Below the pieces are notes generated by a model that searched no databases, was not told the DNA's origin, and saw only the letters and a list, made by a program, of their open reading frames with translations. A stretch of DNA of 64,000 nucleotides from Acidobacteriota bacterium (GTDB taxonomy: Bacteria; Acidobacteriota; Terriglobia; Acidiferrales; UBA7541). The DNA is taken from assembly GCA_013289695.1 (NCBI GenBank), contig JABCZK010000020.1, positions 2,038 through 66,037 on the forward strand. Direction: 5' to 3'. The translations under genes were made by a program, and so were the position numbers. Positions 1,875 through 55,638 of this stretch are shown piece after piece (the stretch's first letter is position 1; every line of letters starts with the position of its first letter).

Positions 1875-3929
1875 ATGTTCGAGAGGTTATCATTTTCGGC
1901 GCTGTTCGCAATTGGTGTGGTCCTAGCGTCTTACGGTTGGAGTCAGGCGCAGTCAGAACAACCTGGTTCGCACCTTCGACCAATCCAGCAAAACGGCAGG
2001 TGGGGGTATATCGACCGCACTGGGAAGATCGCCATCGAACCCCAGTTCTCGTGGGCGGAGGAATTTTCAGAAGGGCTTGCGGCGTTTGAAAACGAAGATG
2101 GTAAACACGGTTACATCGATGAGACCGGCAAGCCTGTAATCGAACCCAAGTTCGATAACGGGACCAATTTCTCCGAGGGGCTCGCTGCAGTATCGGTAGA
2201 TTTCAAATGGGGTTACATCGACAAAAGCGGGAAGTGGACCATACCGCCTCAGTTCGCAGTCGGAAGGCCCTTCTCTAATGGTCTCGCACTCGTCGGCGTA
2301 CCGCTCTCCGGCGAAGTCACGTTTCCGCCCGGTCCAGAGAAACACGAGTTTATCGACAAGACTGGAAAAGTCGTGATCAGCTCTGAACACGACATCCTGA
2401 ATGGTAGTTTTTCAGAAGGGTTCGCTGCGGTCCAATTCATCACGAACAAGGGCATAGATGACCAGCTGATTGATAAGACTGGAAAGACTCTCATCGCCGT
2501 GCAAGATTTGCAGCTTAGAGGCTTTTCGGATGGCTTGGCAGTGGTAAAGAAAGATGGGAAGTGGGGGTACGTAGGTAAGAGCGGGCGCTTTCTCATTGAA
2601 CCGCAGTTCGAAGAGGCTGAGTCGTTTTCGGAAGGGTTAGCCGCGGTCGAAATTGATAAGAAGTGGGGATATATCGACCCTCAAGGCGCAATAGTTATTG
2701 GGCCAACTTTCGATTTTGCTCCGGGCGAGTTCTCCGAAGGATTGGCATTGGTTTTCATGAATGGTGAGTGCGCCTATGTTGACAAGACAGGGAAAGTCAC
2801 CATTCATGTTCGTTGTGACGACGCGGAGGGATTCGAAGGCGGCTTGGCCTCTGTGCATATCGGAAAAGACCCTGAGGAAAAGCGCGCCTATGTAAACAAA
2901 CGAGGTGACTTTGTCTGGGGTCCTGCTGCCTTCAAGTATCGGTCGCTTGAAGAAATTCGGGCGCGCGCCGAGAAACGAAGTAAAAAGGAAGAAGTATTGA
3001 CACCTTTGACTGAGGAAGAGCGGTCGCTGAATCTACGCGACGTGATTCTTAATCAACCCGATTTCGTCGCAGATCTCAGCTTTTTCGTTGGAGAAGGATT
3101 CGGTGGTTTCAGCGGTGGAGAGCGTCTTGCCCGGAAAGGAAACAGGTATCGTCAAGAGAGTCAGTTCTGGATTTTTATTGGGGAAGTCGGTAAGTCTGCG
3201 GCACGCCTCTACCCGAATGCCAAAGTCTACGATGATTTCGAGGCGGCGAGAGGCGGGCTGGAGGACGGTCTCCTTTTTGACCTGAGGGCTTTGGCCCTAG
3301 AATCCGATGTCAATTTCACAGCTCTGGGAACGGCACTGATTGACGGGCAGAAATGTATCAAGGTCGAAGCAACAAGGCCCGGGAGTCCCGAGAAAACGTA
3401 CCTCTACGTTGCGCGCGGTTTGAAGAATCTGGCTATCGTGTCCCAAAGCATTGGGCCAAAGCGCAGCATGGTGGAAAGGTTGAGCAATGTTTCTCTCGAA
3501 GTGCCAGCAAATCTGGTTGAAATCCCTTCTGACTATAAACCCATCGGGCACGACCGATGGGTCAAGGTCGAGACAGCCAAGGTAACTTACAAAGGCAATC
3601 CTTCTAAGGATTTCGGAGTCTTCCGGGCACCGGGCGGTGAGTTGTTCATATGGATTAGTGATGCCTACTACCCTTGGGAGTATCTCGTTCGGCCAAACCA
3701 GGGGACGGTCGAAATAGCTTTCGAAGGGTTACTGGTGACGCGTTCCGGCGAATACGTTTGGCAAACCAAGGAGATGGAAGCGTTCAGTCAGACGGGTTAC
3801 CGAGTTGCCAGCGAGCGAGGAGCTTACGAAACGGACGAAGATAGACGCGTGATCGTAAGTCAGAACTCGGTCAAATTCCGCTCGCGCAGTTACGAACAAG
3901 ACAAGGCGATGATTGAAGTTAGCTGGTAG
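1875..3929 (+). CDS. secreted WG-repeat (KWG-type) protein with an unknown C-terminal domain of about 330 aa
   Basis: 684-aa ORF. ggtgagag RBS-like site before ATG. Signal-like N-terminus FSALFAIGVVLASYGWSQAQS. At least 8 repeats of the form KWGYIDKSGK..I.PQF....FSEGLA. Confidence 0.85.
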   Translation: MFERLSFSALFAIGVVLASYGWSQAQSEQPGSHLRPIQQNGRWGYIDRTGKIAIEPQFSWAEEFSEGLAAFENEDGKHGYIDETGKPVIEPKFDNGTNFSEGLAAVSVDFKWGYIDKSGKWTIPPQFAVGRPFSNGLALVGVPLSGEVTFPPGPEKHEFIDKTGKVVISSEHDILNGSFSEGFAAVQFITNKGIDDQLIDKTGKTLIAVQDLQLRGFSDGLAVVKKDGKWGYVGKSGRFLIEPQFEEAESFSEGLAAVEIDKKWGYIDPQGAIVIGPTFDFAPGEFSEGLALVFMNGECAYVDKTGKVTIHVRCDDAEGFEGGLASVHIGKDPEEKRAYVNKRGDFVWGPAAFKYRSLEEIRARAEKRSKKEEVLTPLTEEERSLNLRDVILNQPDFVADLSFFVGEGFGGFSGGERLARKGNRYRQESQFWIFIGEVGKSAARLYPNAKVYDDFEAARGGLEDGLLFDLRALALESDVNFTALGTALIDGQKCIKVEATRPGSPEKTYLYVARGLKNLAIVSQSIGPKRSMVERLSNVSLEVPANLVEIPSDYKPIGHDRWVKVETAKVTYKGNPSKDFGVFRAPGGELFIWISDAYYPWEYLVRPNQGTVEIAFEGLLVTRSGEYVWQTKEMEAFSQTGYRVASERGAYETDEDRRVIVSQNSVKFRSRSYEQDKAMIEVSW

Positions 3930-18187: not shown

Positions 18188-18634
18188 TTACTGGACTGGA
18201 TTGTTGTAGCCGGCGTCGCGGGGGTCAATCGGCTTGCGTCCGGAAAATCCTTCGTCCTGGCGGTGGTAGAAACGGATGCGATCTTCGCCCAGCTTCCAGC
18301 AGAGATACACTTCCTCGTCGTCAATGCGCGCGGGAAAATCCAGCAGCCCCACTTCCAGATCCTTTACCACGCAACCGGTTTCCTGAATCTGGTCCAGCGC
18401 GGACTGCACGGTTTCTTCCAGGCGATTGCGTTCCAGGCGCGTCTTGGCCGCGCTTTCGTATGCCACGGCCAGGCCGCCGGAGCGCTGGATGCGTTCGGCG
18501 AGTGAATTGATCTGCTCGTCCACGTCCATCATCTTGCGGCGCGATTCCATCGCTTCGATCAGCAGCGGCTCGAGCTGCGAACGCAGCCGCTCCGCTTCCG
18601 TCAGCGAGAAATATTTGGACTCCTCATCCGCCAT
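18188..18634 (-). CDS. DUF2203-like protein
   Basis: 148 aa. N-terminal FSLTEAERL...LEPLL and C-terminal YLCWKLGEDRIRFYH...GFSGRKPI resemble DUF2203. From memory. Confidence 0.65.
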   Translation of the reverse strand: MADEESKYFSLTEAERLRSQLEPLLIEAMESRRKMMDVDEQINSLAERIQRSGGLAVAYESAAKTRLERNRLEETVQSALDQIQETGCVVKDLEVGLLDFPARIDDEEVYLCWKLGEDRIRFYHRQDEGFSGRKPIDPRDAGYNNPVQ

Positions 18635-18664: not shown

Positions 18665-19645
18665 TCAGCCGCCAATATAGACCATCGTGCGCGAGGGCGG
18701 AACAAAATCCGGCTCGTTGATACGATGGCCCTTTTCCTTGGTTTGCACCATGGCGATAATCGCGTCGCCGATTTCGCGGTCGCCCATGCCGCTGCGCAGC
18801 AAACTTTTCACGTCGTGGTCTTCTTTGCTGAACAGGCAGGTGCGCAATTTCCCATCGGCGGTGAGCCTAATGCGCGAGCAATGTCCGCAGAAGGGCTGCG
18901 TTACGGGCGCGATCAATCCGATTTCGCCGCCGCCGTCCGCGAAGCGGTATTTCCGCGCGGTCTCGCTGCGCTCGTGCACCACGGGGATCAGCGGCCAGCG
19001 CGCCGAGATGCGCCGATGCACTTCCGCCGCGGGCACTACCATGTCGCGCGTCCATGCGCGGTCCGCATCCAGCGGCATGAACTCGATGAAGCGCATGACG
19101 ATGTCTTTTGCGCGCGCGAATTCCGCGAAGGCTTCCACTTCGTCGTCGTTCAGCCCGCGCACCAACACAGCGTTTACCTTCACGGGACGCAGCGGCGAAG
19201 CCTGCGCCGCCTCGATTCCCGCCAGCACTTGATCGAACGTCTTGGTGCGGGTCACTTTCTCAAACTTTTCACGATTTAGCGAATCCAGGCTAATGTTGAT
19301 GCGGTCCAGGCCCGCCGCCACCAGCCGGTCGCAGCGCTCGGCGAGCAAGTGGCCGTTGGTGGTCATCGAAAGGTCCTGCACACCAATAGCTTTCAGCCGC
19401 GCCACAAAATCTTCCACGCCCGGACGCACCAGCGGCTCGCCTCCCGTCACGCGCACTTTGCGAATGCCCATCCCCAGCAAAATGCGCACCAGCCGCTCGA
19501 ACTCATCCCATTCCAGCAGCGCGTGCTCCGCCATGTGATTTTCCGGATCCGCCGAACGGCAATACACGCAGCGAAAATTACAGCGGTCCGTCACCGAAAC
19601 CCGCAGGTCGGTGATGGGGCGTCCGAATTTGTCCGTCAGTGCCAC
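18665..19645 (-). CDS. moaA: GTP 3',8-cyclase MoaA (radical SAM)
   Basis: LTDKFGRPITDLRVSVTDRCNFRCVYC plus a C-terminal CGHCSRIRLTADGKLRTCLF cluster. GTG 19645 gives an E. coli-like N-terminus. The track start 19729 (TTG) would add 28 non-conserved residues. Confidence 0.9.
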   Translation of the reverse strand: MALTDKFGRPITDLRVSVTDRCNFRCVYCRSADPENHMAEHALLEWDEFERLVRILLGMGIRKVRVTGGEPLVRPGVEDFVARLKAIGVQDLSMTTNGHLLAERCDRLVAAGLDRINISLDSLNREKFEKVTRTKTFDQVLAGIEAAQASPLRPVKVNAVLVRGLNDDEVEAFAEFARAKDIVMRFIEFMPLDADRAWTRDMVVPAAEVHRRISARWPLIPVVHERSETARKYRFADGGGEIGLIAPVTQPFCGHCSRIRLTADGKLRTCLFSKEDHDVKSLLRSGMGDREIGDAIIAMVQTKEKGHRINEPDFVPPSRTMVYIGG

Positions 19646-19734
19646 GCTCTTTTTAGATGCTGTCAAGAATAAAATGGCCCAATCCGAATTCGGAATTGGG
19701 CGAGGATGCCAGCGGCGCAGCACGCTCAAAAAAA

Positions 19735-19880
19735 CGCGCTCGCTGGATGCTCTCCTTTCCAGATCCGGGAGGAGCAGGCGTTTCCGCCCAATCCCTCATC
19801 TCCTGAAATTACCAGGAGCATCGCCCCCACGCCTTGGGTTGTCTCTCCGTTAGGCCGAGCGGGTCGGAGATATCAGAGCC
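19735..19880 (-). ncRNA. structured 5' leader of moaA, possible Moco-riboswitch-like element (tentative)
   Basis: Minus-strand RNA contains CUCCGACCCGCUCGGCCUAACGGAG, hairpin CUCCUG-guaauuu-CAGGAG, GNRA hairpin GGCG-GAAA-CGCC and ...GGAAAGGAGAG, then a U7 run. Not verified against a covariance model. Confidence 0.25.
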
Positions 19881-20139
19881 GATGATACGCTTCCAGTCGA
19901 ACGGGAGCAAACAATCGCGACGTCGGAAAGTGGCGCAAGCCGGCGCACAGTACGTCCAGCTAATTAAGTGCCTTGGGGTGCGAGAAAGTGTCGTATCAGT
20001 AAACATACTGATGCAAAGTGTGCCGTTTTGAACAGGTTCGCCTGCCCCTGTTCCCATATTGTGGTCACGGTTGCTTTTGAACCATTCCCGGGAGCCAGTT
20101 CGCGAAGGGGCTGGCTCTCGCTAATCCGGCGGACTTTTG

Positions 20140-41145: not shown

Positions 41146-43053
41146 ATGCAAGCCCTCAAACACGTTATCGTCGGGACCGCCGGGCACATTGACCACGGCA
41201 AATCTTCGCTCGTAGAGGCCCTCACCGGCACAAATCCGGACCGGCTCGAAGAAGAAAAGCGCCGGGGCATCACGCTGGATTTGGGATTTGCGTTCCTGGA
41301 CCTCGACGGAGTGAGGCTGGGACTAGTGGATGTGCCAGGGCATGAGCGCTTCGTGCGCAACATGCTGGCGGGAGCCGGCGGCATTGACTTGGTGCTGCTG
41401 GTGATCGCGGCGGACGAGGGGATCAAGCCGCAGACACGCGAGCATTTCGAAATTTGCCGCTTGCTGGGAATTCCGCGCGGAATTGTCGCCATCACGAAAT
41501 CCGAGCTGGTTGATTCCGACTCGCTGGGGTTGGTGCGTCTGGAGATCGAAGAATTCGTGCGCGGATCGTTTTTGGAAGGCGCGCCGATTGTACCCGTGAG
41601 CGCGCGCAGCGGCGCGGGGCTGGACGAGCTGAAGGCCGTGCTGCGACGCGGGGCACAAGCGGTGGCGGCGAAAGATGCGACGCAACATTTTCGTTTGCCG
41701 ATTGACCGCTCGTTTGCAATGAAGGGATTTGGCACGGTGGTAACCGGGACGCTGATTTCCGGCGCGGTGAAGGTGGACGACGAAGTGGAGCTGTACCCGA
41801 CGCGGAAACGATTGCGCGTTCGCGGGCTGCACTCCGGTGGCAAGCAGATCGAACGCGCCGTCGCGGGGCAACGCACGGCGGTGAACCTGGCGGGAATCGA
41901 GCACGAGGAAATCACGCGCGGGATGGTGCTGGCGCCGGCCTGTGTATTCGAAGCAACGCAGCGAGTGGACGCGCGCGTCACGCTGCTCGGTTCCGCACCG
42001 ACGCTGAAAAATCGCGCGCGTGTGCATTTTCATCAGGGTACGGCGGAAGCGATCGCGGAAGTGATTCTGCTGAGTGACAGCGGCGAACTCGCGGCGGGCG
42101 GATCGGCGTTCGCGCAATTGCGGCTGGATAAACCCTTGCTGCTGCTTTCGCGAGACCGCTTTATCCTGCGGCGGTTTTCGCCGGTGGTGACGATTGGCGG
42201 CGGCGCCGTGCTGGACGCGCGCGCGCCGCGGCACAAAAGCAGGGACGCGGCGGTTGCGCGGTTTCTGGGGGTGCTGGAACACGGCAAACGCGAAGAAATT
42301 CTCGGCGCACTGGCGGAAGCGGCGCCGCGCGGGCTGACGCTACCGGAGATTGTGGCGCGGTCGGGGTGGATCGAATCGGAGACGCGCGCGACGGCCGAAA
42401 AATTGGCGGCCGCGAAACGCGTAAGGATCATGGGGAGCGCGCCAATCGTGGTGGCGCCGGCACAGGCGGTCAGCGATTGCGCCGCGGCGATTCGCAAGGC
42501 GGTCGAGGCTTTTCATCGCACGAATCCCCTGCTCGCGGGAATTCCGAAACAAGAATTGCGCGCGCGGGCGGGGCGAGCGCGGGTGGAAATTTTTGACGCG
42601 GCGCTAGGTGACCTGATGGCGGCGCGAGCGCTGGTGACGGCTGGCGATCTGGTAAGCCAGGCCGGGCGCGAAATCACGCTTTCAACCGAAGAAACGCGCG
42701 CGAAGGAATTGATCGAGCGCGAATTCGAGAGGGCGGGATTGACTGTGCCGGGGTTTGCCAGCGTGCTGGCGAAGCTGCCGGTGGACGCGGCGCGCGCGCA
42801 GAAAATTCTGCAGATTCTGCTGCGCGAAAAAGTGCTGGTGAAGATTTCCAGTGACCTGGTATTTCACCGCAACACGCTGTTGCGCCTCCGGGAGACGGTC
42901 GCAAAATACCGCGAGGAACGCGGCTCGCGGCTGCCTATCACTGTATTTAAGGAACTTACGGGTATCACGCGCAAATACGCCATCCCGCTGCTCGAGCACC
43001 TTGACCGCGAGCAGGTTACGCGGCGGGCGGGGGACGAGCGTGTTATACTTTGA
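41146..43053 (+). CDS. selB: selenocysteine-specific translation elongation factor SelB
   Basis: [57 protein letters not shown]. Long C-terminal winged-helix region ending [21 protein letters not shown]. Confidence 0.9.
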
Positions 43054-45330: not shown

Positions 45331-45544
45331 ACACTCGTACGCCGATGTTGCAGTGTTCGTCGTGCGGCTGATCGTCTTTCGCAGCTATTCCCAATAGAAA
45401 TCACGACAGCACACAAAACCGGCCCTGGCGCGCGAACAGCGATCGCGAACAGCGATCGGATTGACACCAAAAGCGCGGGCGCATACACTCGCCGAGGACA
45501 ACTTAGCTGGCTCGGGGTAGCCTTGCGAGCGCGACCATCGCGCG

Positions 45545-45777
45545 CGCAGGTAAGAATTGAAATTGGGCTGGATGGATTTCAATTTTTAGGGAAGGCCGTG
45601 AAAATCGGCCACGGTCCCGCCACTGTAATCGGCCATCACTGAAGTGCGCTTTTCTTTTTTTGCGGGCGCACGGGTGATAGGTTGAAAGTCAGGGAACCTA
45701 CCCGAACTGGTCGAAGCTGACACTCTCCGCGCGAGAGAGTGTGGCGAGACGCCTCGCTCTATTCGCGAGGCTTTTTT
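45545..45777 (+). promoter_or_regulatory. cobalamin riboswitch with terminator-type expression platform
   Basis: AGGGAAggccGTGAAAAtcGGccaCGGtCCCGCCACTGTaa (45588-45628; B12 box GCCACTG at 45619-45625). 3' element AGTCAGGGAACCTACC. Then hairpin gcctcgc-tctattc-gcgaggc plus T6 (45751-45777). Confidence 0.85.
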
Positions 45778-45801
45778 ATTGCGCGGAGGAATATTTTGGC
45801 G

Positions 45802-46932
45802 GTGAGTCGAGCAAAACGACGTTTTTTTGCCAGCGCGTTGACGTTGGCATGTGGTGTGTTCGCGTGCGGCGTGCGCAATGCCGGCGCCGCCGACGTGCGC
45901 TCGCAGCAAAGCGCGGCCACGGCGACGGATCCCGCGGCGCAAACGGCGGCAAACAAGCGCGCCGTAAAGCAAGTGACGGACGAAACGGGCCGGCACATGG
46001 CGATTCCACTGAACGTGCAGCGCGTGGTGACCTTGGCGCCCAACCTGACGGAAACAATTTACGCGCTCGGCCTGGACGGCAAGCTCGCGGGCGACACGAC
46101 GTATTGCGACATTCCGCCGGCGGCGAAGGAAAAACCGCACGTCGGCTCGGCGCAGGAGCCGAGCCTGGAAGCTATTGTGGCGTTGCATCCTGATCTGGTG
46201 CTGGCGACCACGTCCATCAACCGGGCCGAAACGGCGGACGCGCTGCTGAAGATCGGCGTGCCGGTTTATACCAGCGATCCGCACACCATCGCCGGAATGC
46301 TGGGTTCCACCGCGACGATAGCGGACTTGCTGGGCGCAAGCGAGCAAGGCGCGAAGCTGGTGGCGGTATTGCAGCAGCGTCTCGACGCGCTGCACGAGGC
46401 GTTGCAAGACCGGCCCTTGGCGCACGTGCTATTTGTCGTGTGGGAAGATCCGCTGATTTCGATCGGGCAAAATACTTTTATCGCGGATGCGCTGCGCTGG
46501 GCGGGCGCGGAATCCATTATTGCGGCCAGTCAGAATTGGCCGCAGGTGAGTATGGAAGAAGTAGTGCGCTTGCAGCCGGACTACATCGTGCTAACGCCGG
46601 ACCATTTGGAGGCAGAAACGCACGAACACGTTGACACTCTGCGCAATCGACCGACATGGAGCGAGTTGCGCGCGGTGAAACTGGGACACGTGGTGATGGC
46701 CAGTGACGAATTCACGCGGCCTTCACCTGGGCTGGTGGACGCGATCGAATCGCTCGCGCACGAATTGCATCCGGATGTATTCAGCACGTCCGCAGCGTTA
46801 CCCGCCCCTCATTTCTCACAGCGGACCGTAGGGGCGGGCCTAGGACCCGCCCCTACAACCGCAAACGCGCACACGCTTTCGCAATTTGCTGTGGAACGAT
46901 TAAGCAATGAGGCTTCCAGATGCGCCCGCTGA
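45802..46932 (+). CDS. btuF: periplasmic substrate-binding protein of a cobalamin-type ABC importer (BtuF-like)
   Basis: GTG 45802 (ggagga 11 nt upstream) gives a signal-like SRAKRRFFASALTLACGVFACG. VVTLAPNLTETIYALGL...SLEAIVALHPDLVLA. Downstream of a B12 riboswitch. Track N-terminus 45739-45801 overlaps the terminator. Confidence 0.75.
   Translation: MSRAKRRFFASALTLACGVFACGVRNAGAADVRSQQSAATATDPAAQTAANKRAVKQVTDETGRHMAIPLNVQRVVTLAPNLTETIYALGLDGKLAGDTTYCDIPPAAKEKPHVGSAQEPSLEAIVALHPDLVLATTSINRAETADALLKIGVPVYTSDPHTIAGMLGSTATIADLLGASEQGAKLVAVLQQRLDALHEALQDRPLAHVLFVVWEDPLISIGQNTFIADALRWAGAESIIAASQNWPQVSMEEVVRLQPDYIVLTPDHLEAETHEHVDTLRNRPTWSELRAVKLGHVVMASDEFTRPSPGLVDAIESLAHELHPDVFSTSAALPAPHFSQRTVGAGLGPAPTTANAHTLSQFAVERLSNEASRCAR
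46828..46856. repeat. REP-like hairpin embedded in the 3' tail of the btuF-like ORF
   Basis: gtaggggcggg-cctagga-cccgcccctac (11-bp perfect stem with GTAG/CTAC ends). Translated as TVGAGLGPAPTT. Confidence 0.85.
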
Positions 46933-47945
46933 CGCCGAGACGGATTCTTTCGATCTGCGGGCTATTGGCGACGGTTCTCTTTGTCACGGTGGTGATTTCG
47001 CTGCGAGTGGGCGCTTATCCCATCAGCATGCGAGACATCGTGATTACCTTATTTAACGGCGCGATTGGACGCGGAGACACTTCGGAATTCAGCCAAGTGA
47101 TTTTCGGATTGCGCCTGCCGCGCATCGCTCTGGGGATCTTGGTGGGCGCGGCGCTCTCCACGTCCGGAGCCGGATTTCAGGCGCTGCTGCGCAATCCGCT
47201 CGCCGATCCGTATGTGCTGGGAGTTTCCAGCGGCGCAGCACTGGGCGCAATGCTGAGCCTGATCATTGCTCCGCACACCGTGGGCGCAATTCAATTGGCG
47301 GCGTTCGTCGGAGCCGCGGCGACCATCGCGGCGGTTTATTTTCTGGGCAGGCGCGGTGGGCAGCTGGACAGCGCGACGCTGCTGCTGGCGGGGATCATAG
47401 CGGCGTCATTCCTTTCGGCGATCATTATTTTTCTGCTGACCCTGGTAAACGGACCGGGGCTGCGCAGCATGACGTTCTGGCTGATGGGCGACTTGACGGC
47501 GCCTGCGCCAACCCAGAATGTGCTGGGCTGGTTCGGTTTTCTGTATTTTGTTTTCGTGGTGGCGGCGGGAGCGATGTACACCACATCCTCCGACCTGAAT
47601 CTGATTCTTACCGGCGAGCAGGAAGCGGGGCATCTGGGCGTGAACGTGACGCGCGTAAAATTGGTGGTGTATGTGGCCGCGTCGGTGCTGACTGGCCTCG
47701 CGGTTTCGGTGAGCGGCACCATTGGATACGTGGGCCTGCTGGTGCCGCACGTGATGCGCATGCTTTTCGGCACGGATTACCGGCTGCTGATTCCGACGTC
47801 CGCGATTGGCGGCGCGATTGTGATCGTGCTCGCCGATACGCTGGGGCGCACGATCGTCGCGCCCACGGAATTGCCGGTGGGCGCGATGACGGCGCTGGCC
47901 GGCGCGCCCGTATTTATTTACCTGATGCGCAGGAGAATTCGATGA
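46920..47945 (+). CDS. btuC: FecCD-family ABC permease (BtuC-like)
   Basis: 341 aa, about 9-10 TM helices. RLPRIALGILVGAALSTSGAGFQALLRNPLADPYVLGVSSGA. Confidence 0.85.
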   Translation: MRPLTPRRILSICGLLATVLFVTVVISLRVGAYPISMRDIVITLFNGAIGRGDTSEFSQVIFGLRLPRIALGILVGAALSTSGAGFQALLRNPLADPYVLGVSSGAALGAMLSLIIAPHTVGAIQLAAFVGAAATIAAVYFLGRRGGQLDSATLLLAGIIAASFLSAIIIFLLTLVNGPGLRSMTFWLMGDLTAPAPTQNVLGWFGFLYFVFVVAAGAMYTTSSDLNLILTGEQEAGHLGVNVTRVKLVVYVAASVLTGLAVSVSGTIGYVGLLVPHVMRMLFGTDYRLLIPTSAIGGAIVIVLADTLGRTIVAPTELPVGAMTALAGAPVFIYLMRRRIR

Positions 47946-48805
47946 ACGCCGGCGCGGAAAACGGAGCCGCGATGACGCACCAGCCGATCCCGCTCGCGCC
48001 TCCGAAGCGCGTGCGCCTGAAAGTGGAGCAGGCCAGTTACGCTTATTCGGCGACCGACCGCTCGGCGCCGAAATTCACGCTGGGGCCGGTGAGCTTCGAA
48101 GCGCAGCAGCGCGAGCTGGTGGCGATCCTGGGGCCGAACGCCAGCGGAAAATCCACGCTGCTGAAATTGCTGGCGGGATTGATCAAGCCATTGTCCGGGC
48201 GCGTGGAAGTGGATGGCACCGAAGTGAGCGAGCTGGACCTGCGCACGCGCGCGCAGCAGATCGCGCTGGTATCGCAGGAAAGCGAGCTGCTTTTTCCGCT
48301 GCGCGTCTGGGAATACGTGCTGCAGGGACGCTACCCCTATGGCAAAAGATTGCGGTTCGAATCCGACGAAGATTGCTTGCTGGCGGGAAACGCGCTGGCG
48401 CAGGTGGGCGCCGACGCGTTGCGCGACCGTTGGATGGAGCAGCTTTCCGGCGGCGAAAAACAGCGCGTGATTCTGGCGCGGGCGCTGGCGCAGCAGCCTT
48501 CCCTGCTGCTGCTCGATGAGCCTACGCAACATCTGGATATCGGCGGCAAAGTGGAATTGCTGCGTCGCTTGCGCCGCTTGGCCGATGAAAATCGCTACAC
48601 CGTGGTGGTGGTGACGCACGAATTGAATTTGGCCGCGGAATTTTCCGACCGCATCGCTTTGCTGCACAAGGGCAAGTGCCTGCGCATCGGAGAACCCGGG
48701 GAAGTGTATCAGCAGGAAGTGCTGGAAGAGGTGTTCGAAGCGCCACTCGAAGTCGAGAAGCGTTCGAGCGGGCGTCCGCGCGTGATCTTGCGCGGGAGCC
48801 ACTAG
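47942..48805 (+). CDS. btuD: ABC transporter ATP-binding protein (BtuD/FepC-like)
   Basis: Walker A GPNASGKST, signature LSGGEKQR, Walker B LLLLDEP. ATGA overlap with the permease gene. Confidence 0.85.
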   Translation: MNAGAENGAAMTHQPIPLAPPKRVRLKVEQASYAYSATDRSAPKFTLGPVSFEAQQRELVAILGPNASGKSTLLKLLAGLIKPLSGRVEVDGTEVSELDLRTRAQQIALVSQESELLFPLRVWEYVLQGRYPYGKRLRFESDEDCLLAGNALAQVGADALRDRWMEQLSGGEKQRVILARALAQQPSLLLLDEPTQHLDIGGKVELLRRLRRLADENRYTVVVVTHELNLAAEFSDRIALLHKGKCLRIGEPGEVYQQEVLEEVFEAPLEVEKRSSGRPRVILRGSH

Positions 48806-48849: not shown

Positions 48850-49078
48850 CCACAATCACCAGAGACTCCGCGCACGGGAAGACGGTGAAAAACCGTCGCC
48901 GCCGCGCGACTGTAAGGCGGAATTTTTCAGCGCGCACCACTGTCTGAAGCGAAGAATCGCATCAAGACCGGCGATTCGGAGTGGAAGATGGGAAGGCCGC
49001 GCTGATGCCGGGATTTCATCTTCGTGTATCGCGATGAAATCGCGGCAAGCCGCCAAGCCAGGAGACCGGCGGAGTCTC
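48850..49078 (+). promoter_or_regulatory. cobalamin riboswitch (second copy) upstream of the TonB-dependent receptor
   Basis: GGGAAgacGGTGAAAAaCCgtcgccGCcGCGCGACTGTaa (48876-48915) and the 3' element AGCCAGGAGACC (49056-49067). Occupies the first 43 codons of track ORF 49034-51472. Confidence 0.75.
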
Positions 49079-49162
49079 AATCCGGATGCAGAGGCGCCTG
49101 AGGCGGCGCCGCGCGTCATTTGGACAACCTTCAACTCCCGCGCGAGAGGGAGAGGAGGAAAA

Positions 49163-51472
49163 ATGAGACTACGCACGATTATTCTGCCTTTAGCTTCGCT
49201 CTTCCTGGTTTTTGCGATCGCCACCCCAGCACAGACTTCCAATACTTCAGCGCCAGCCAGCAGCGCCCCACACGATCAAAAGGCGGCATCGATTGCCGGG
49301 ACTGTTTTTGATCCCGACGGCCGCGTGGTGGCGGGCGCGCGAGTGACCCTTCTCCACGCGATGGCGCAACTGGAAGAACGGGAAACAAACTCGGAGGGCA
49401 AATTCCAATTTGAGGGTTTGCTGGCCGGGACGTATCAGATCGTCAGTACCTCTGCGAATTTTGACCAGTATCCTGTGGAAATTAATTTGCAGGGTGACGA
49501 AAAGCGAGTCGTGGATCTCCATTTAAAACTGAGCGCGCTACAGGATCGCGTCGTCGTCTCCGTTGCGCCGGGCGGCGCGCTGACGTCAACGATCGCATCT
49601 TCCGTCAGCGTCGTGACCGCGGAGGAAATTGACGACCGCGGCGCGCAGGTTGCTGCGGACGTGCTGCGAGGCCTGCCCGGTGTCGAAATCAATCAGTCCG
49701 GAGGCCGCGGAACGGTTACCAGCGCGTTCATTCGCGGCGGAAATTCGAACTACAACCTGGTGATGATTGACGGAATTGAACTGAACGATTTCGGCGGCGG
49801 GTTCGATCTATCGCCGCTGCCCGCTGAAGGGGTCGAGCAAATCGAAGTGATACGCGGTCCGGAGAGCGCGCTGTACGGATCGAACGCTGTCTCGGGCGTA
49901 ATTAATATCGAGACGATTCACGGAGATGGCCCGCCGCATTTTTCCTTTTTGGGCGAAGCCGGCAGCTTGTACACCTGGCGGGTGGCTACTACCGGAGCGG
50001 GACTGAACAAGGGATTCAGCTGGGCGTACAGCCTGTCGCGTTTGCAAACCAGAGGGCAAATTCGGAACGACGGTTACCGCAACCAGAACTCCACGGTGAG
50101 CCTGGGCTATTCGCGCTCGCCGCGCCGCAAATTCAACGTGAATTTCTTGGGCTACAACGGAGTAGTTGGGCTCCCGGGCCCCTGGGGCTCTGACCCGGAA
50201 GGATTATTTCCCGGGCGCGACCCCGCCACTCACCAGAACCAGAATCTTTTCGGCTACCAGGCGCAGGAAGTCGAACAATTCTCTTCGCGCTTCCAGCAGG
50301 TCACCACGGTGAGCGTCTCCACGGACCGCATCACTTTCTTTTCGCCTACGGACGGAAACTCGTTCACCAACAATCTGCGCGTGGTGGCCAATAGCAGGAG
50401 CGAGGTCGCGGTTTCTTCCCAGGACACGCTCGTAGCGGGATTCGAATACGACCGAGACCAGTTCAAGAATCTCTTTGTGGAAGGGACCAGCGACTTGCCG
50501 TTTCTGCTGGGGCGCAATAGCTATGCGTTCTTCGCGGAAAACCGCTGGAATCCCTCCGATCGTTGGTTCATCAACGTGGGAGTGCGCGTGGACGACCTGC
50601 AAACCGATTCCGTTCCGGTCAACAGCGACACCGGCCAGCCCGGGATTCCCGCCAATACCCTCGCCAAGGTTACGCCGCGGATTTCCGCCGCCTATGTGGC
50701 GCGGCAGGGAGACGGCGACGGCTTTTTCGGCGGAACCCGCCTGCACGCCAGTTTTGGAACCGGCTTCCGCGCGCCGGACGGATTCGAACTCGCGTTTACG
50801 AATAATCCGGCGCTGAAGCCCGAGCAAAGCACGAGCTACGACGCGGGCATCGAGCAACGCATGGCGCACGACCGCGCGATCCTGGACGTCACCTACTTCT
50901 ATAACAAATTCAAGGATCAGATTGTGTCGGTCGGCGACCTTCCCTCCAACTTTGATTCGGAGAACATCGGGAAGTCCCGAGCCTGGGGCGTGGAAACAAC
51001 CATTCGCATCCATCCCTTTCGCTCGTTCGAATTTTCAGGTACATACACTTGGATGAATACCGCGATTCTGGCGCTGGACGGATTTGCGGAACCCGCGCAG
51101 CCTTTCACCGTCGGAGAACCACTGCTTCGCCGCCCGCGCAACGCTGCTGGATTCAACGCGACCTGGACCAAGAAGCGGTTGATGCTCAACATGAACGGAA
51201 CGATTCGCGGCGCGGTGCTCGACGTCGAGCCGAACGATGGGACTTTTGCTTGCGAACTGGGGCTTACTTGCCTCTTCCGCAATCACGGATACGAACTGAT
51301 GAACGCGGGCTTCGCCTACCAGCTGCCCAAGGGCATCGAAATCTATGGGAGGCTGAACAATTTTCTGAATCAGAGATACGAAGAGGCGTTCGGCTTTCCG
51401 TCGTTGCGCTTGAACTTCATGGCGGGATTCAAAATTCAAATTCCCACTGCAGGAAGCCACGGGGATAATTGA
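49163..51472 (+). CDS. btuB: TonB-dependent receptor (BtuB-like) with carboxypeptidase-regulatory-like N-terminal domain
   Basis: ATG 49163 with gaggagga RBS. Signal peptide MRLRTIILPLASLFLVFAIATPAQT. Plug region VVTAEEIDDRGAQVAADVLRGLPGVEINQSGGRG..TSAFIRGGNSNYNLVMIDG. Aromatic-rich beta-barrel end. Confidence 0.85.
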   Translation: MRLRTIILPLASLFLVFAIATPAQTSNTSAPASSAPHDQKAASIAGTVFDPDGRVVAGARVTLLHAMAQLEERETNSEGKFQFEGLLAGTYQIVSTSANFDQYPVEINLQGDEKRVVDLHLKLSALQDRVVVSVAPGGALTSTIASSVSVVTAEEIDDRGAQVAADVLRGLPGVEINQSGGRGTVTSAFIRGGNSNYNLVMIDGIELNDFGGGFDLSPLPAEGVEQIEVIRGPESALYGSNAVSGVINIETIHGDGPPHFSFLGEAGSLYTWRVATTGAGLNKGFSWAYSLSRLQTRGQIRNDGYRNQNSTVSLGYSRSPRRKFNVNFLGYNGVVGLPGPWGSDPEGLFPGRDPATHQNQNLFGYQAQEVEQFSSRFQQVTTVSVSTDRITFFSPTDGNSFTNNLRVVANSRSEVAVSSQDTLVAGFEYDRDQFKNLFVEGTSDLPFLLGRNSYAFFAENRWNPSDRWFINVGVRVDDLQTDSVPVNSDTGQPGIPANTLAKVTPRISAAYVARQGDGDGFFGGTRLHASFGTGFRAPDGFELAFTNNPALKPEQSTSYDAGIEQRMAHDRAILDVTYFYNKFKDQIVSVGDLPSNFDSENIGKSRAWGVETTIRIHPFRSFEFSGTYTWMNTAILALDGFAEPAQPFTVGEPLLRRPRNAAGFNATWTKKRLMLNMNGTIRGAVLDVEPNDGTFACELGLTCLFRNHGYELMNAGFAYQLPKGIEIYGRLNNFLNQRYEEAFGFPSLRLNFMAGFKIQIPTAGSHGDN

Positions 51473-52136: not shown

Positions 52137-53627
52137 ATGACCCGAGATACTCAGGAAGCAAATCGCGTTACACCCGAGATTATGGCGAAGTACGAAGCTG
52201 TGATCGGGCTGGAGGTGCACGCGCAGCTGAAGACGCGCACGAAAGCGTTCTGCGGCTGCGCGACGCGTTTTGGCGATGCGCCGAACTCCAATACTTGCCC
52301 GGTATGTTTGGGATTGCCGGGCGCGTTGCCGGTGCTGAATCGCCGAGCGCGTGAGCTGGCGATTCGCGCGGCGCTGGCGCTGGAATGCAAGATTCAGGAG
52401 CGCTCCGTCTTCGCGCGCAAGAATTATTTCTATCCCGACCTGCCGAAGGGCTATCAAATTTCGCAGTACGAGCTGCCGCTGGCGCTGGCGGGTTCGCTCG
52501 CAATTGAAGCCGAGGGTACGGCCCAGCGCATCGGCATCACGCGCGTGCACATGGAGGAAGACGCGGCCAAAAATCTGCACGAAGGCTTCGCGGATTCCGA
52601 CCGCTGGAGCTACATTGATTACAACCGCTGCGGCACCCCGCTGATCGAAATTGTTTCCGAGCCTGATATTCGCACGCCCGCTGAAGCGTATTCATATTTG
52701 ACGACGTTAAAGCAGGTGCTGGAGTACACGGAAGTGAGCGACTGCAACATGGAAGAAGGCTCGCTGCGCTGTGACGCTAACGTGAGCGTGCGCGTGCGCG
52801 GCGCGCCGAAATTCGGAACGAAAGTGGAAGCCAAGAACCTGAATTCGTTCCGCTATCTGGCGCATGCGCTGGAATACGAAATCGAGCGGCAAATCGGCGT
52901 GCTTGAGGCCGGGGGCACTGTGACGCAAGAGACGCGGTTGTGGAATGTGACGGCGGGACGCACCGAGGCGATGCGCTCGAAGGAATTCGCGCACGACTAT
53001 CGCTATTTTCCCGATCCGGATTTGCTGCCGCTGACAGCTTCGGCGGCGCTCGTGGCGCAGGTCCGGGCGGCCATGCCGGAATTGCCTGACGCCAAGCGGA
53101 CGCGTTTGCTGAGCGAGTATGGTATTGCCGCGTACGATGCGGGCGTGCTGACGGCCACGCGCGCTCTGGCCGATTATTTCGAAGCCGTCGCGAGCGCGGG
53201 CGCTCCGGCGCGTGCGGCCGCGAGCTGGATTTCGGTGGAATTGCTGCGGCGATTGAAGGATGCCGGCAAGGAAATCTCGGATTGTCCGGTGGCGCCGGCG
53301 GCGCTTGCGGAATTGCTCGCGATCGTGGAGCGCGGAGAAATTACCGCAGCCAGCGGCAAGAAAGTGTTCGCCACGATGTTCGATACCGGGAAGAAAGCTG
53401 CGGAAATTATCGCGTCCGAAGGCATGGCGCAGATCTCCGATACTGGCGCGATTGAAAAGATTGCGCGCGCGGTAGTGGCGAAGAGCCCGGACAACCTGGC
53501 CAAGTACCGCGCAGGAAGCGACGGCGTATTCAAATTTTTCGTGGGCCAGGTGATGAAGGAAACGCGCGGGCAGGCCAACCCGCAGATCGTCAACGAAATT
53601 CTGAAGCGCGTGCTGGCGGAGGCGTAG
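52137..53627 (+). CDS. gatB: Asp-tRNA(Asn)/Glu-tRNA(Gln) amidotransferase subunit B
   Basis: [23 protein letters not shown]...[19 protein letters not shown]...[18 protein letters not shown] 52182 is a possible alternative start. Confidence 0.95.
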
Positions 53628-53691
53628 CGGCGGCGCGTGTGCCGAGGCAGCTTGATTTAGCAACGTGTTGAGGGGCAGAAGGAGAAACGTC

Positions 53692-54210
53692 GTGTTGAAG
53701 GAAGGCGATCAGGCACCGCATTTTGAAGTGCTGGCGGACGACGGGCGAAAAGTATCGCTCGCCGACTATCGCGGCAAAAATCTGATTTTGTATTTTTACC
53801 CGAAAGCGAACACGCCGGGTTGCATTCACGAGGCGAACGGCTTCCGCAACATGTTCGCGGATTTCCAGGCGCAGAACGCGGAGATCGCCGGAGTGAGCGC
53901 GGACGTCGTGGAGGCGCAATCGAAATTCAGCAAGAAACTGAACCTGAATTTCCCGCTGCTGGCGGACACGGAATTCGAAGTGATCGAAGCGTACGGCGCG
54001 CGGCGCATGAAAAGCTTTTTGGGCAAGACCTTCATGGGAATCGTGCGGACCACTTTCTGGATCGGGCCGGACGGCAAGATCGTGAAGATTTGGAATGGCG
54101 TGGTCCCCCGAGGGCACGCAGCCGAGGTGCTGACTGCGCTGCGCGGCAGCGAGCCGGCAGACGAGCCCGACGACGCTGCGTCGGCCACCACGCCATCGAG
54201 TAAATCGTAA
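53692..54210 (+). CDS. bcp: thioredoxin-dependent thiol peroxidase (Bcp/PrxQ), Cys form
   Basis: GTG 53692 with aaggag RBS 7 nt upstream. LKEGDQAPHFEV...LILYFYPKANTPGCIHEA...FPLLADTEFEVIEAYG. Confidence 0.9.
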   Translation: MLKEGDQAPHFEVLADDGRKVSLADYRGKNLILYFYPKANTPGCIHEANGFRNMFADFQAQNAEIAGVSADVVEAQSKFSKKLNLNFPLLADTEFEVIEAYGARRMKSFLGKTFMGIVRTTFWIGPDGKIVKIWNGVVPRGHAAEVLTALRGSEPADEPDDAASATTPSSKS

Positions 54211-54270
54211 GCGAAATGCTGCAGCGCGCACGGTCGGAGAATTCGCTCGCACCCGGCTGGGAGAATCGAG

Positions 54271-54735
54271 ATGCTCAAAGTAGGCGACAAGGCTCCGCAC
54301 TTTCAAGTGACGGACGACAGTGGCGCGACCGTTTCGCTGCGGGATTATCGCGACAAAAACGTGATCCTTTATTTTTATCCGAAAGCGAATACTCCGGGTT
54401 GAATCAACGAAGCGTCCGAGTTTCGTGACGCCCTCAAGCAATTCGATGAACTGAACACCGCGATCGTCGGCTGCAGCGGCGATTCCGTCGAAGCGCAGAA
54501 AAAATTCAAGGTGAAGCACAAATTGACTTTCCCGCTGCTGGCCGACACCAAGTTCGAAGTAATCGAACCATACGGCGCGCGGCGCATGAAGAGTTTTCTG
54601 GGAAAATCGTTTCTGGGAATCGTGCGGATGACGTACTGGATCGGTCCCGACGGAAAAATCCGCGCCATCTGGGACAAAGTAACGCCGAAAGGGCACGCCA
54701 CCGAAGTGCTGGCGGCCATAAATGGCCAATCGTAG
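54271..54735 (+). CDS. Bcp/PrxQ-type peroxiredoxin with in-frame TGA (54400-54402) at the peroxidatic position; candidate selenoprotein
   Basis: MLKVGDKAPHFQV...VILYFYPKANTPG-TGA-INEASEF...FPLLADTKFEVIEPYGARRMKSFLGKSFLGIVRMTYWIGPDGKI. The TGA aligns with TGC of the upstream paralog. Frame and homology continue for 110 codons after the TGA. selB is in the window. Confidence 0.7.
54412..54431 (+). promoter_or_regulatory. SECIS-like hairpin downstream of the in-frame TGA
   Basis: GCGUCCGA-GUU-UCG(U)GACGC: 8 bp with one bulged U. Apical loop starts with G 18 nt after the UGA. The equivalent region of the Cys paralog forms no comparable stem. Confidence 0.5.
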
Positions 54736-54765
54736 GGCGCTTTTCCGCGCGTTTGTGGTGGTGCG

Positions 54766-55638
54766 CTAGACGGAAACTTTGAAGTGCTCGCCGTCTGGTT
54801 CGATGAGCGCGTTGTCAATCAGGCGCGTGTCTCCCACCTTCGCCGCGAGCAACACGTAGGACGTGCCGCGCAGATTGGTGATTGGCTCAAGCCTTTCATT
54901 ATCTACAATTTCGGCGTAGTCGAGTGCTACGCGCGGTTCCAGCGCCAGCACGCGGCGCAGAGCGGCCAGCAAGCGGTTGGCGTCGCGCTCGCCTTTGGCG
55001 ATTTCCTCGCGCACGGCTGCGAGCGAGCGCGAGAGCGCCGCGGCCGAGCGGCGGTCTTCCCCTTTGAGATAAACATTGCGCGAAGAAAGCGCCAGGCCAT
55101 CGGCTTCGCGCACGATCGGGCAGACCACCACGTTGGTATCGAGATTCAGGTCCGTGGACATTTGGCGGATGAGACGTGCCTGTTGCGCGTCTTTGCGGCC
55201 GAAATAGGCGAAGCGCGGTTGCACGATCTCGAAAAGTTTCAGCACCACGGTGGTGACGCCGCGAAAATGACCGGGGCGCGAACGGCCTTCGAGCCGGTCG
55301 CTCAATCCTTCCACGACGACGGCCGTGCGAAAACCAGACGGATACATTTCCTGCGGCGACGGCGCAAAAAGATAATCCACGCCCAGAGCTTCCAACGCGG
55401 CGCGGTCTGCTTCCAGCGTGCGGGGATATTTATTGAGGTCTTCCGCCGGGCCAAATTGCTTGGGATTGACGAAGAGGGACACGACCACCGGCGCGCCTTC
55501 GCGCTGCGCGGCGCGAATCAGCGAAAAATGCCCTTCATGCAGCGCGCCCATGGTGGGCACGAGGCCGAGAATGCGCTCCTCGGCGCGGGCTTCGTGCGCG
55601 ATTTGCTTCATCCATTCGATGGTGTGGACTGTTTGCAT
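54766..55638 (-). CDS. panC: pantoate--beta-alanine ligase
   Basis: LGLVPTMGALHEGHFSLIRAA...FVNPKQF...YPR....D. Confidence 0.95.
   Translation of the reverse strand: MQTVHTIEWMKQIAHEARAEERILGLVPTMGALHEGHFSLIRAAQREGAPVVVSLFVNPKQFGPAEDLNKYPRTLEADRAALEALGVDYLFAPSPQEMYPSGFRTAVVVEGLSDRLEGRSRPGHFRGVTTVVLKLFEIVQPRFAYFGRKDAQQARLIRQMSTDLNLDTNVVVCPIVREADGLALSSRNVYLKGEDRRSAAALSRSLAAVREEIAKGERDANRLLAALRRVLALEPRVALDYAEIVDNERLEPITNLRGTSYVLLAAKVGDTRLIDNALIEPDGEHFKVSV

Follow-up and report, generated by a model that had tools for sequence, protein, structure and literature searches.

Is a peroxiredoxin gene with a stop codon exactly at its catalytic position a broken gene, or is the codon read as an amino acid? 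The question is raised by a locus in a 64,000-nucleotide stretch (hereafter the window) of contig JABCZK010000020.1, from the Acidobacteriota bacterium assembly GCA_013289695.1. An open reading frame (ORF) starts there at ATG 54271 and runs to TAG 54733-54735; its 154 codons contain one in-frame TGA only, at 54400-54402, and from the ATG it reads MLKVGDKAPHFQVTDDSGATVSLRDYRDKNVILYFYPKANTPG-TGA-INEASEFRDALKQF.... An initial annotation of this DNA had proposed that the frame encodes an overlooked selenoprotein, and the coordinates it gave for the frame, for the TGA and for a neighbouring paralogue (53692-54210) all hold on re-reading. We conclude that ORF 54271-54735 is very probably one functional gene, encoding a selenocysteine (Sec)-containing peroxiredoxin of the BCP/PrxQ type. 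The recoding signature is established, and it consists of a conserved UGA, purifying selection, a covarying hairpin and the presence of selB.

The position of the TGA was examined by protein alignment. The Cys-containing paralogue, which lies directly upstream and is 66% identical to the Sec protein, reads ...LILYFYPKANTPGCIHEANGF... (YPKANTPGC IHEANGF), with TGC at the codon aligned with the TGA, exactly as the initial annotation had claimed. The TGA column coincides with the invariant peroxidatic Cys of the P-x3-T-x2-C motif in this paralogue and in all homologues, and the translated active site of the Sec ORF is T41-P-G-U44. Coding signal was then followed across the TGA with a codon-usage log-odds score trained on the long ORFs of the window. 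The score was 0.32 bits/codon before the TGA and 0.34 after it, compared to 0.34 for the Cys paralogue, and in a screen of the entire 64 kb this TGA was the only one with true coding signal on both sides. Since the scores are equal across the TGA, and since it is the sole TGA of this kind in the window, the pattern is not due to chance. The moaA/DUF2203 pair at 18667 was considered as a second gene with an in-frame TGA and was rejected, being two adjacent genes. A promoter and terminator scan of 53500-54900 gave nothing interpretable.

A mechanical ORF listing divides the gene into 54271-54402 (43 aa) and 54511-54735 (74 aa) and adds an out-of-frame ORF at 54216-54428 (70 aa), the last two being the ones initially reported. 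The expectation that ordinary gene calling would truncate the gene is confirmed by public collections, in which the exact 43-aa N-terminal product occurs on 30 contigs, and C-terminal fragments of 73-98 aa form a cluster with 188 members, labelled "peroxiredoxin Q/BCP" or "thioredoxin-dependent peroxiredoxin". As gene callers output exactly these two fragments, one might suppose that the UGA is mainly a regulated terminator, or that the locus makes two polypeptides, of 43 aa and of about 74-110 aa. It is also true that termination competes with insertion at Sec codons when selenium is scarce. We nevertheless consider this highly improbable: the AhpC-TSA domain match (PF00578, 124.9 bits) runs unbroken over the TGA from residue 4 to residue 132, the active-site loop and the core of the fold do not occur together on either fragment, and a mechanical listing opens the second ORF at GTG 54511 simply because no start codon lies nearer to the stop.

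The recurrence of the TGA in other sequences bears on two further explanations. The first, a sequencing or assembly error, has nothing in its favour beyond the prior possibility, and it is refuted by the public data. The same locus is present on 22 public contigs. On the contigs from four JGI samples the gene is identical or differs by two substitutions near the 3' end, with the TGA present in all of them, and one more JGI contig and one ENA contig carry the same split calls of 43 aa and 74 aa. Orthologues with 75-88% identity share the same TGA, and it recurs in more than 100 other genomes. Specifically, a scan of one genome per species with the pattern TTYTAYCCNAARGCNRAYACNNNNGGNTGA (FYPKA[N/D]TxG-TGA) returned at least 120 loci, the pattern with TGA thus being present in at least 120 species genomes. 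Among the 120 matches listed, 116 stay open as a BCP-like ORF for about 100-115 codons past the TGA, three (L009, L058 and L087) look frameshifted, and one (L119) runs off the end of its locus. In the three frameshifted cases the frame deteriorates soon after the TGA or in the middle of the gene, either by true decay or through indel errors in metagenome-assembled genomes. The matches listed come from Acidobacteriota (many), Myxococcota, Desulfobacterota, Planctomycetota, Binatia and Thermoleophilia/Actinomycetota, and also from Clostridia, Verrucomicrobia, Gemmatimonadota, Nitrospinota and others.

The second explanation is a nonsense pseudogene, that is, a bcp duplicate killed by a TGC-to-TGA change and redundant beside the Cys copy. 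In favour of this, TGA and TGC differ by a single nucleotide, and the adjacent Cys paralogue is intact. To assess selection, dN/dS (the ratio of nonsynonymous to synonymous divergence) was estimated by the Nei-Gojobori method (NG86) between the Sec gene and 14 orthologues. It was 0.05-0.13 on the 3' side of the TGA, with dS of 0.4-2.1, and 0.07-0.25 on the 5' side. Such values downstream of a TGA that the orthologues share, at saturated synonymous divergence, exclude a decaying nonsense allele. This agrees with the initial observation that the downstream conservation is unlike that of an old nonsense pseudogene, the orthologues keeping both the TGA and the open frame. Moreover, in at least 10 related loci the slot directly adjoining gatB contains a single bcp and no other, this bcp being the Sec gene, and the TGA is kept in at least 120 species, nearly all of them with an open frame beyond it. 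The pseudogene explanation is thereby effectively refuted.

If the UGA is read as Sec, a selenocysteine insertion sequence (SECIS) would be expected in the mRNA close to it. The candidate element is a hairpin at 54412-54431, which starts 9 nt past the UGA and consists of 8 bp with one bulged U on the 3' side and an apical GUU loop (54420-54422); the first nt of the loop is the 18th past the UGA and is a G. The minimum free energy (MFE) of the window hairpin is -9.8 kcal/mol. Five orthologues that diverge freely at synonymous sites elsewhere share GAAGCGUCCGAGUUUCG(U/C)GACGC right after the UGA. When the 45 nt past the UGA were folded in all loci, most formed a hairpin in one fixed register, and the apical loop was GUU in 100 of the 124 sequences folded. 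The hairpin exists in two variants, that of the window with its 1-nt 3' bulge, and a bulge-free one, GGUUGCGG-GUU-CCGCGACC.

Base pairs were counted on ungapped alignments of the bulged (n=37) and the bulge-free (n=39) variant. Standard pairs filled 92.9% of the cells in the former and 96.5% in the latter, with 3 and 4 pairs, respectively, changed on both sides, and in each variant the covariation score was reached by 0 of 500 shuffles. When the 3' partner was slid by 1-3 columns, 10-58% (bulged) and 37-52% (bulge-free) were paired. At pair 20-24, 23 sequences have A-U and 12 have G-C, by an exchange of GAG/UUU and GGG/UUC that is synonymous in a Phe codon; at pair 17-27 the counts are 31 for G-C and 6 for C-G. 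Codons +1 to +11 show a synonymous divergence of 0-0.26, compared to 0.3-0.76 for the flanking codons. As a matched control, metagenomes were scanned with the same pattern ending in TGY instead of TGA, and a hairpin was scored when at least 7 of the 8 pairs and the GUU loop were present. It was found in 69% of 118 Sec forms and in 2% of 119 Cys forms. In genes coding for the same ..E[AG].[EG]FRD peptide the proportions were 85% (Sec) and 6% (Cys). The mean MFE was -12.3 kcal/mol for Sec versus -8.8 kcal/mol for Cys forms (Mann-Whitney p = 8e-12). Folding of the Cys paralogue 53692-54210 gave no SECIS-like hairpin after its TGC. A conserved hairpin in the orthologues, on which the selenoprotein proposal had depended, is thus present, covarying and specific to TGA-bearing genes.

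About 25 Sec-PrxQ genes do not have the fixed-register GUU hairpin (for example L005, L052, L101, L122 and L124, and also L008, L092, L068 and L117). In these genes a hairpin is shifted a few nt downstream, within 48 nt after the TGA, as in GGAUUC-CGUGAUC-GAAUCC with its 7-nt loop. It looks like a second SECIS design in the same protein family.

The protein predicted to bind such an element is also encoded in the window. The ORF initially named as selB, 11 kb upstream of the Sec gene, scores 363.5 bits against TIGR00475 (cut-off 242), covering positions 1-578 of 581, and contains the Pfam domains GTP_EFTU, Beta-barrel_SelB, SelB-wing_2 and SelB-wing_3; it is therefore complete, with its SECIS-binding winged-helix domains. 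This selB is an orphan, its neighbours being an ADOP permease, a 104-aa ORF without family match, Maf and an enoyl-CoA hydratase, with no adjacent selA or selD. TGA ends 10 of the 25 confident genes in the window, indicating that the standard code is in use.

The genetic code is relevant to a third explanation, in which one of the standard amino acids (Trp, Cys or Gly) is inserted at the UGA, through a reassigned code or a SECIS-independent near-cognate read-through, and no selenoprotein is made. Two points can be cited for it: selenium incorporation into the Sec protein is predicted from sequence alone, and the four closest database homologues (75-79% identity; P0001, P0002, P0003 and P0005, on L001-L004) show W at the critical column. 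The DNA of all four, however, has TGA at this column, with the frame open beyond it. The W calls were made on short JGI contigs of about 0.9-1.1 kb and are not reproduced under translation table 11. The W is therefore an artefact of the JGI gene calls, which presumably used an alternative genetic code. TGA is an ordinary stop in 10 of 25 window genes, as stated, and given the established chemistry of peroxiredoxins, an enzyme with Trp or Gly as its peroxidatic residue would be inactive. Decoding as a standard residue would also leave the TGA-specific covarying hairpin and the intact selB unexplained. We consider it very unlikely. The features on which the Sec-encoding interpretation is based are collected in Table 1.

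Table 1. Coordinates of the predicted selenoprotein gene and associated features in the window.
Feature	Position	Strand	Basis
selB, selenocysteine-specific elongation factor	41146..43053	+	TIGR00475 and Pfam domains
Cys-containing BCP/PrxQ paralogue, 172 aa	53692..54210	+	translation; PF00578 125.7 bits
Shine-Dalgarno-like GGAG, 7 nt 5' of ATG 54271	54260..54263	+	read from sequence; putative function
Predicted Sec-containing BCP/PrxQ-type peroxiredoxin coding sequence	54271..54735	+	translation, 154 codons, Sec at codon 44
UGA predicted to be read as selenocysteine, peroxidatic position of P-x3-T-x2-[C/U]	54400..54402	+	alignment, TGA conservation
Predicted bacterial SECIS hairpin, GCGUCCGA-GUU-UCG-U-GACGC	54412..54431	+	comparative data

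To what kind of peroxiredoxin would the Sec protein belong? Its closest solved structures are the BCP/PrxQ entries 5enu, 3drn, 3ixr and 3gkk (E = 2.5e-28 to 1e-24), and the top 10 PDB matches are all BCPs or close homologues. The best NCBIfam model is NF006960 (BCP-type thiol peroxidase); the PrxQ model NF053650 gave 124 bits (cut-off 260), and AhpC, Tpx and other peroxiredoxin models scored at most 58 bits. These matches place the predicted protein in the BCP/PrxQ subfamily rather than in AhpC/Prx1, Tpx, Prx5, Prx6 or AhpE. In the BCP/PrxQ family the resolving Cys is located at +5 or at about +35/36 relative to the peroxidatic residue. The Sec protein has Ser49 at +5 (UINEAS), so the C-x4-C atypical 2-Cys arrangement is absent, and it has no Cys at about +35/36; its sole Cys, C68, is Ala in the orthologues L054, L056 and L042. 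It would thus fall into the subset without a resolving Cys (CR-less, 1-Cys-like). The upstream Cys paralogue has Asn at +5. By raw counts, Cys is found at +5 in 40 of the 118 Sec forms surveyed (34%) and in 76% of Cys forms; Sec forms often have Ser or Arg at this position. We do not claim a preferential loss of the +5 resolving Cys from Sec forms, since after clustering it was present in 4 of 11 Sec clusters and 8 of 15 Cys clusters, and the raw difference may be an effect of phylogenetic sampling.

The following model can be proposed for the Sec gene. During translation the UGA at 54400-54402 would not be read as a stop. SelB, charged with Sec-tRNA(Sec) and GTP, would bind the hairpin with its apical GUU loop and deliver Sec to the ribosomal A site, and the product would be a 154-residue enzyme with the active site P37-x3-T41-P-G-U44. 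Judging from the family, Sec44 would reduce H2O2 or organic hydroperoxides and be converted to a selenenic acid. The latter would most likely be reduced directly by thioredoxin or another external thiol, in the manner of 1-Cys enzymes, because +5 is Ser and the sole Cys, C68, is Ala in close orthologues. The actual incorporation of selenium, the peroxidase chemistry and the nature of the reductant are in this model predictions from sequence and family.

Some results weigh against a Sec-encoding gene. selA, selD and the gene for tRNA-Sec (selC) were not found in the 64 kb window or in the 10 kb past either end, which were followed through public contigs, and ARAGORN detected no tRNA in the window. 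The NF006960 score of the Sec protein, 138.9 bits, is narrowly under the cut-off of 140. The stability of the hairpin as a single sequence gave z = -1.16 over 41 nt, with 25 of 200 shuffles folding as well, and z = -0.63 over 71 nt. Finally, no Rfam SECIS family matched 54200-54800, either at gathering thresholds or at permissive E-values. This last null result is uninformative, since Rfam does not cover the hairpin element. As the single-sequence hairpin is not significant, the case for a SECIS rests on the comparative evidence presented above, which argues strongly for the predicted element.

The Sec gene and the Cys gene form a tandem pair, as first described, in which the Sec gene had been taken for the second copy. 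The tandem arrangement is correct, and the order of precedence is the reverse. The gene order TonB receptor - gatB - bcp - panC(-) - DinB - panB is kept across many Acidobacteriota, and the bcp next to gatB in the related loci mentioned above is the Sec gene. Other relatives have a Cys orthologue in the same gatB-bcp-panC slot (P0022, P0009 and P0031). In the Cys orthologues of the slot the hairpin is degraded (4-5 of 8 pairs, loop AUU), with the exception of L131. There the Cys orthologue (L131:4001-4462, P0009), whose Cys codon is TGT, retains the GUU loop and 7 of the 8 pairs of the hairpin, and it may have been converted from Sec to Cys recently. Among the loci compared, the tandem Cys copy was found only in the window, in L083, which is the closest species genome to the window (gatB 94% identical), and in the metagenome locus L154. 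Its identity to all other sequences compared is 62-70%, and in a neighbour-joining tree it branches outside the clade of 16 Sec orthologues and their Cys orthologues. The synteny of the slot, the restricted occurrence of the tandem copy and its outside branching indicate that the Sec gene, the conserved occupant between gatB and panC, is the resident and the Cys gene the addition. The tandem Cys copy is thus a separate, older, accessory paralogue, and not the ancestral occupant of the locus. Fitch parsimony on the neighbour-joining tree gave about 22 changes between the Cys and Sec states for 233 sequences, a rough upper-end estimate that is consistent with the published view of repeated Cys/Sec conversions.

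What is the reason for keeping both genes side by side? We would infer at most that the tandem Cys paralogue may be a selenium-independent backup. It is tempting to speculate that the pair constitutes a failsafe for selenium availability, with the Sec enzyme used when selenium is present and the Cys enzyme otherwise, and more broadly that switching between Sec and Cys in this slot among close soil Acidobacteriota tracks the local selenium supply. We regard this as a tentative idea that is more doubtful than probable. If it were true, the gatB-bcp-panC slot would represent a natural test bed of orthologues for the preference of Sec over Cys in a peroxidase.

The practical consequence of the finding lies in annotation. 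The Sec gene is present in public data without a selenoprotein annotation, the gene and its many orthologues being stored either as a 43-aa stub plus a 73-98-aa tail, both labelled "peroxiredoxin Q/BCP", or at full length with a spurious Trp in the active site. The W calls on short contigs place full-length "peroxiredoxins" with Trp at the catalytic position into protein databases. As a consequence of the split and Trp annotations, counts for abundant soil Acidobacteriota are too low, both of their antioxidant repertoire and of their selenium dependence. The present comparative set, comprising at least 120 species with the motif FYPKA[N/D]TxG-U and a simple, fixed-register SECIS consensus, could seed a dedicated hidden Markov model or covariance model by which such genes would be annotated automatically.

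Other features were observed in the window. A cobalamin riboswitch at 45534-45719 (+) precedes a periplasmic-binding-protein / FecCD / ABC-ATPase operon (45739-48805), and another at 48851-49088 (+) precedes a TonB-dependent receptor of the B12 type (49034-51472); with their genes the two riboswitches make up a B12 uptake cluster that is complete, under riboswitch control, and located just 5' of gatB. On the minus strand, a molybdenum/tungsten-cofactor riboswitch (19736-19881, 54.2 bits) lies directly 5' of moaA (18665-19729), which is followed in the same frame by the DUF2203 gene (18188-18634). Two contigs, L136 and L137, reach past the left end of the window. In both, the homologue of window ORF 1875-3929 is preceded, at a distance of about 1.9-2 kb, by a DDE transposase gene (L136:632-1267, L137:4916-5422). 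Farther in the 5' direction the two contigs carry different genes, suggesting a variable region at the left edge of the window.

Our findings can be compared with several known systems. The SECIS of E. coli fdhF has a minimal 17-nt upper stem-loop, GGUUGCAGGUCUGCACC, which is bound by SelB. The element predicted here resembles it in being a hairpin inside the coding sequence soon after the UGA, with an apical loop that contains G-U and begins about 18 nt past the UGA. One variant of the window family likewise has a single bulged stem pyrimidine, and the bulge-free consensus is strikingly similar to the fdhF element. The window hairpin differs in its GUU triloop, as opposed to GGUC, and in having the bulge on the 3' side. 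Its geometry (loop about 18 nt past the UGA, G first, optional bulged pyrimidine) matches the published bacterial SECIS consensus. With the Cys-type BCP/PrxQ enzymes (E. coli Bcp, the Xanthomonas campestris and Xylella fastidiosa BCPs, Burkholderia 5enu and Sulfolobus 3drn) the window protein shares the FYPK-x-x-TPG-C/U loop, the length and the domain; in contrast to them, it is predicted to have Sec as the peroxidatic residue, and it has Ser at the canonical +5 resolving position.

Sec-containing peroxiredoxins themselves are not new, and COG1225, under which they have been listed, we take to be the Bcp group. "Peroxiredoxin (Prx)", COG1225, with the motif TXXU, was a previously known selenoprotein family to which 43 Sargasso Sea genes were assigned (Zhang et al., 2005). 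Twelve Prx selenoproteins were subsequently reported in bacterial genomes, three of them in Anaeromyxobacter dehalogenans, together with five inferred Cys-to-Sec events and with selenoproteins in Acidobacteria (Zhang et al., 2006). One of our TGA-bearing matches, L078, is from an Anaeromyxobacter. A 2026 review includes Prx (PF00578, TxxU) among the established selenoprotein families, citing Sohling et al. (2001). The precedent invoked in the initial annotation is therefore well founded. An experimentally characterized Sec peroxiredoxin is PrxU of Eubacterium (Peptoclostridium) acidaminophilum (Sohling et al., 2001), which is similar to our predicted protein in having Sec at the peroxidatic position through bacterial UGA/SECIS recoding. 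It belongs to a different peroxiredoxin subfamily, since with the PrxU model NF040737, whose cut-off is 270 bits, the window protein scores only 40.2. In the Sec-peroxiredoxin literature cited here we met no experimental work on a Sec enzyme of the BCP/PrxQ type; computationally, such a family has been predicted since about 2004-2005. With the Prx selenoprotein family of Kryukov, Zhang and Gladyshev the window gene has in common the PF00578 fold, the T-x-x-U motif with Sec for the peroxidatic Cys, widespread Cys homologues, a SECIS immediately downstream and multiple Cys/Sec conversions. Nothing essential differs; the window gene is an Acidobacteriota member, without the +5 resolving Cys and with an adjoining Cys paralogue. 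Since this TxxU family has been published (Zhang et al., 2005; Zhang et al., 2006; and the 2026 review), the kind of protein is already known and the window gene would be a new, unannotated member of it. No new biological principle is involved, as peroxiredoxins with Sec in place of the peroxidatic Cys have been on record since 2001-2005, and the value of the Sec gene lies mainly in annotation and in the orthologous Sec/Cys system that it adds to this family.

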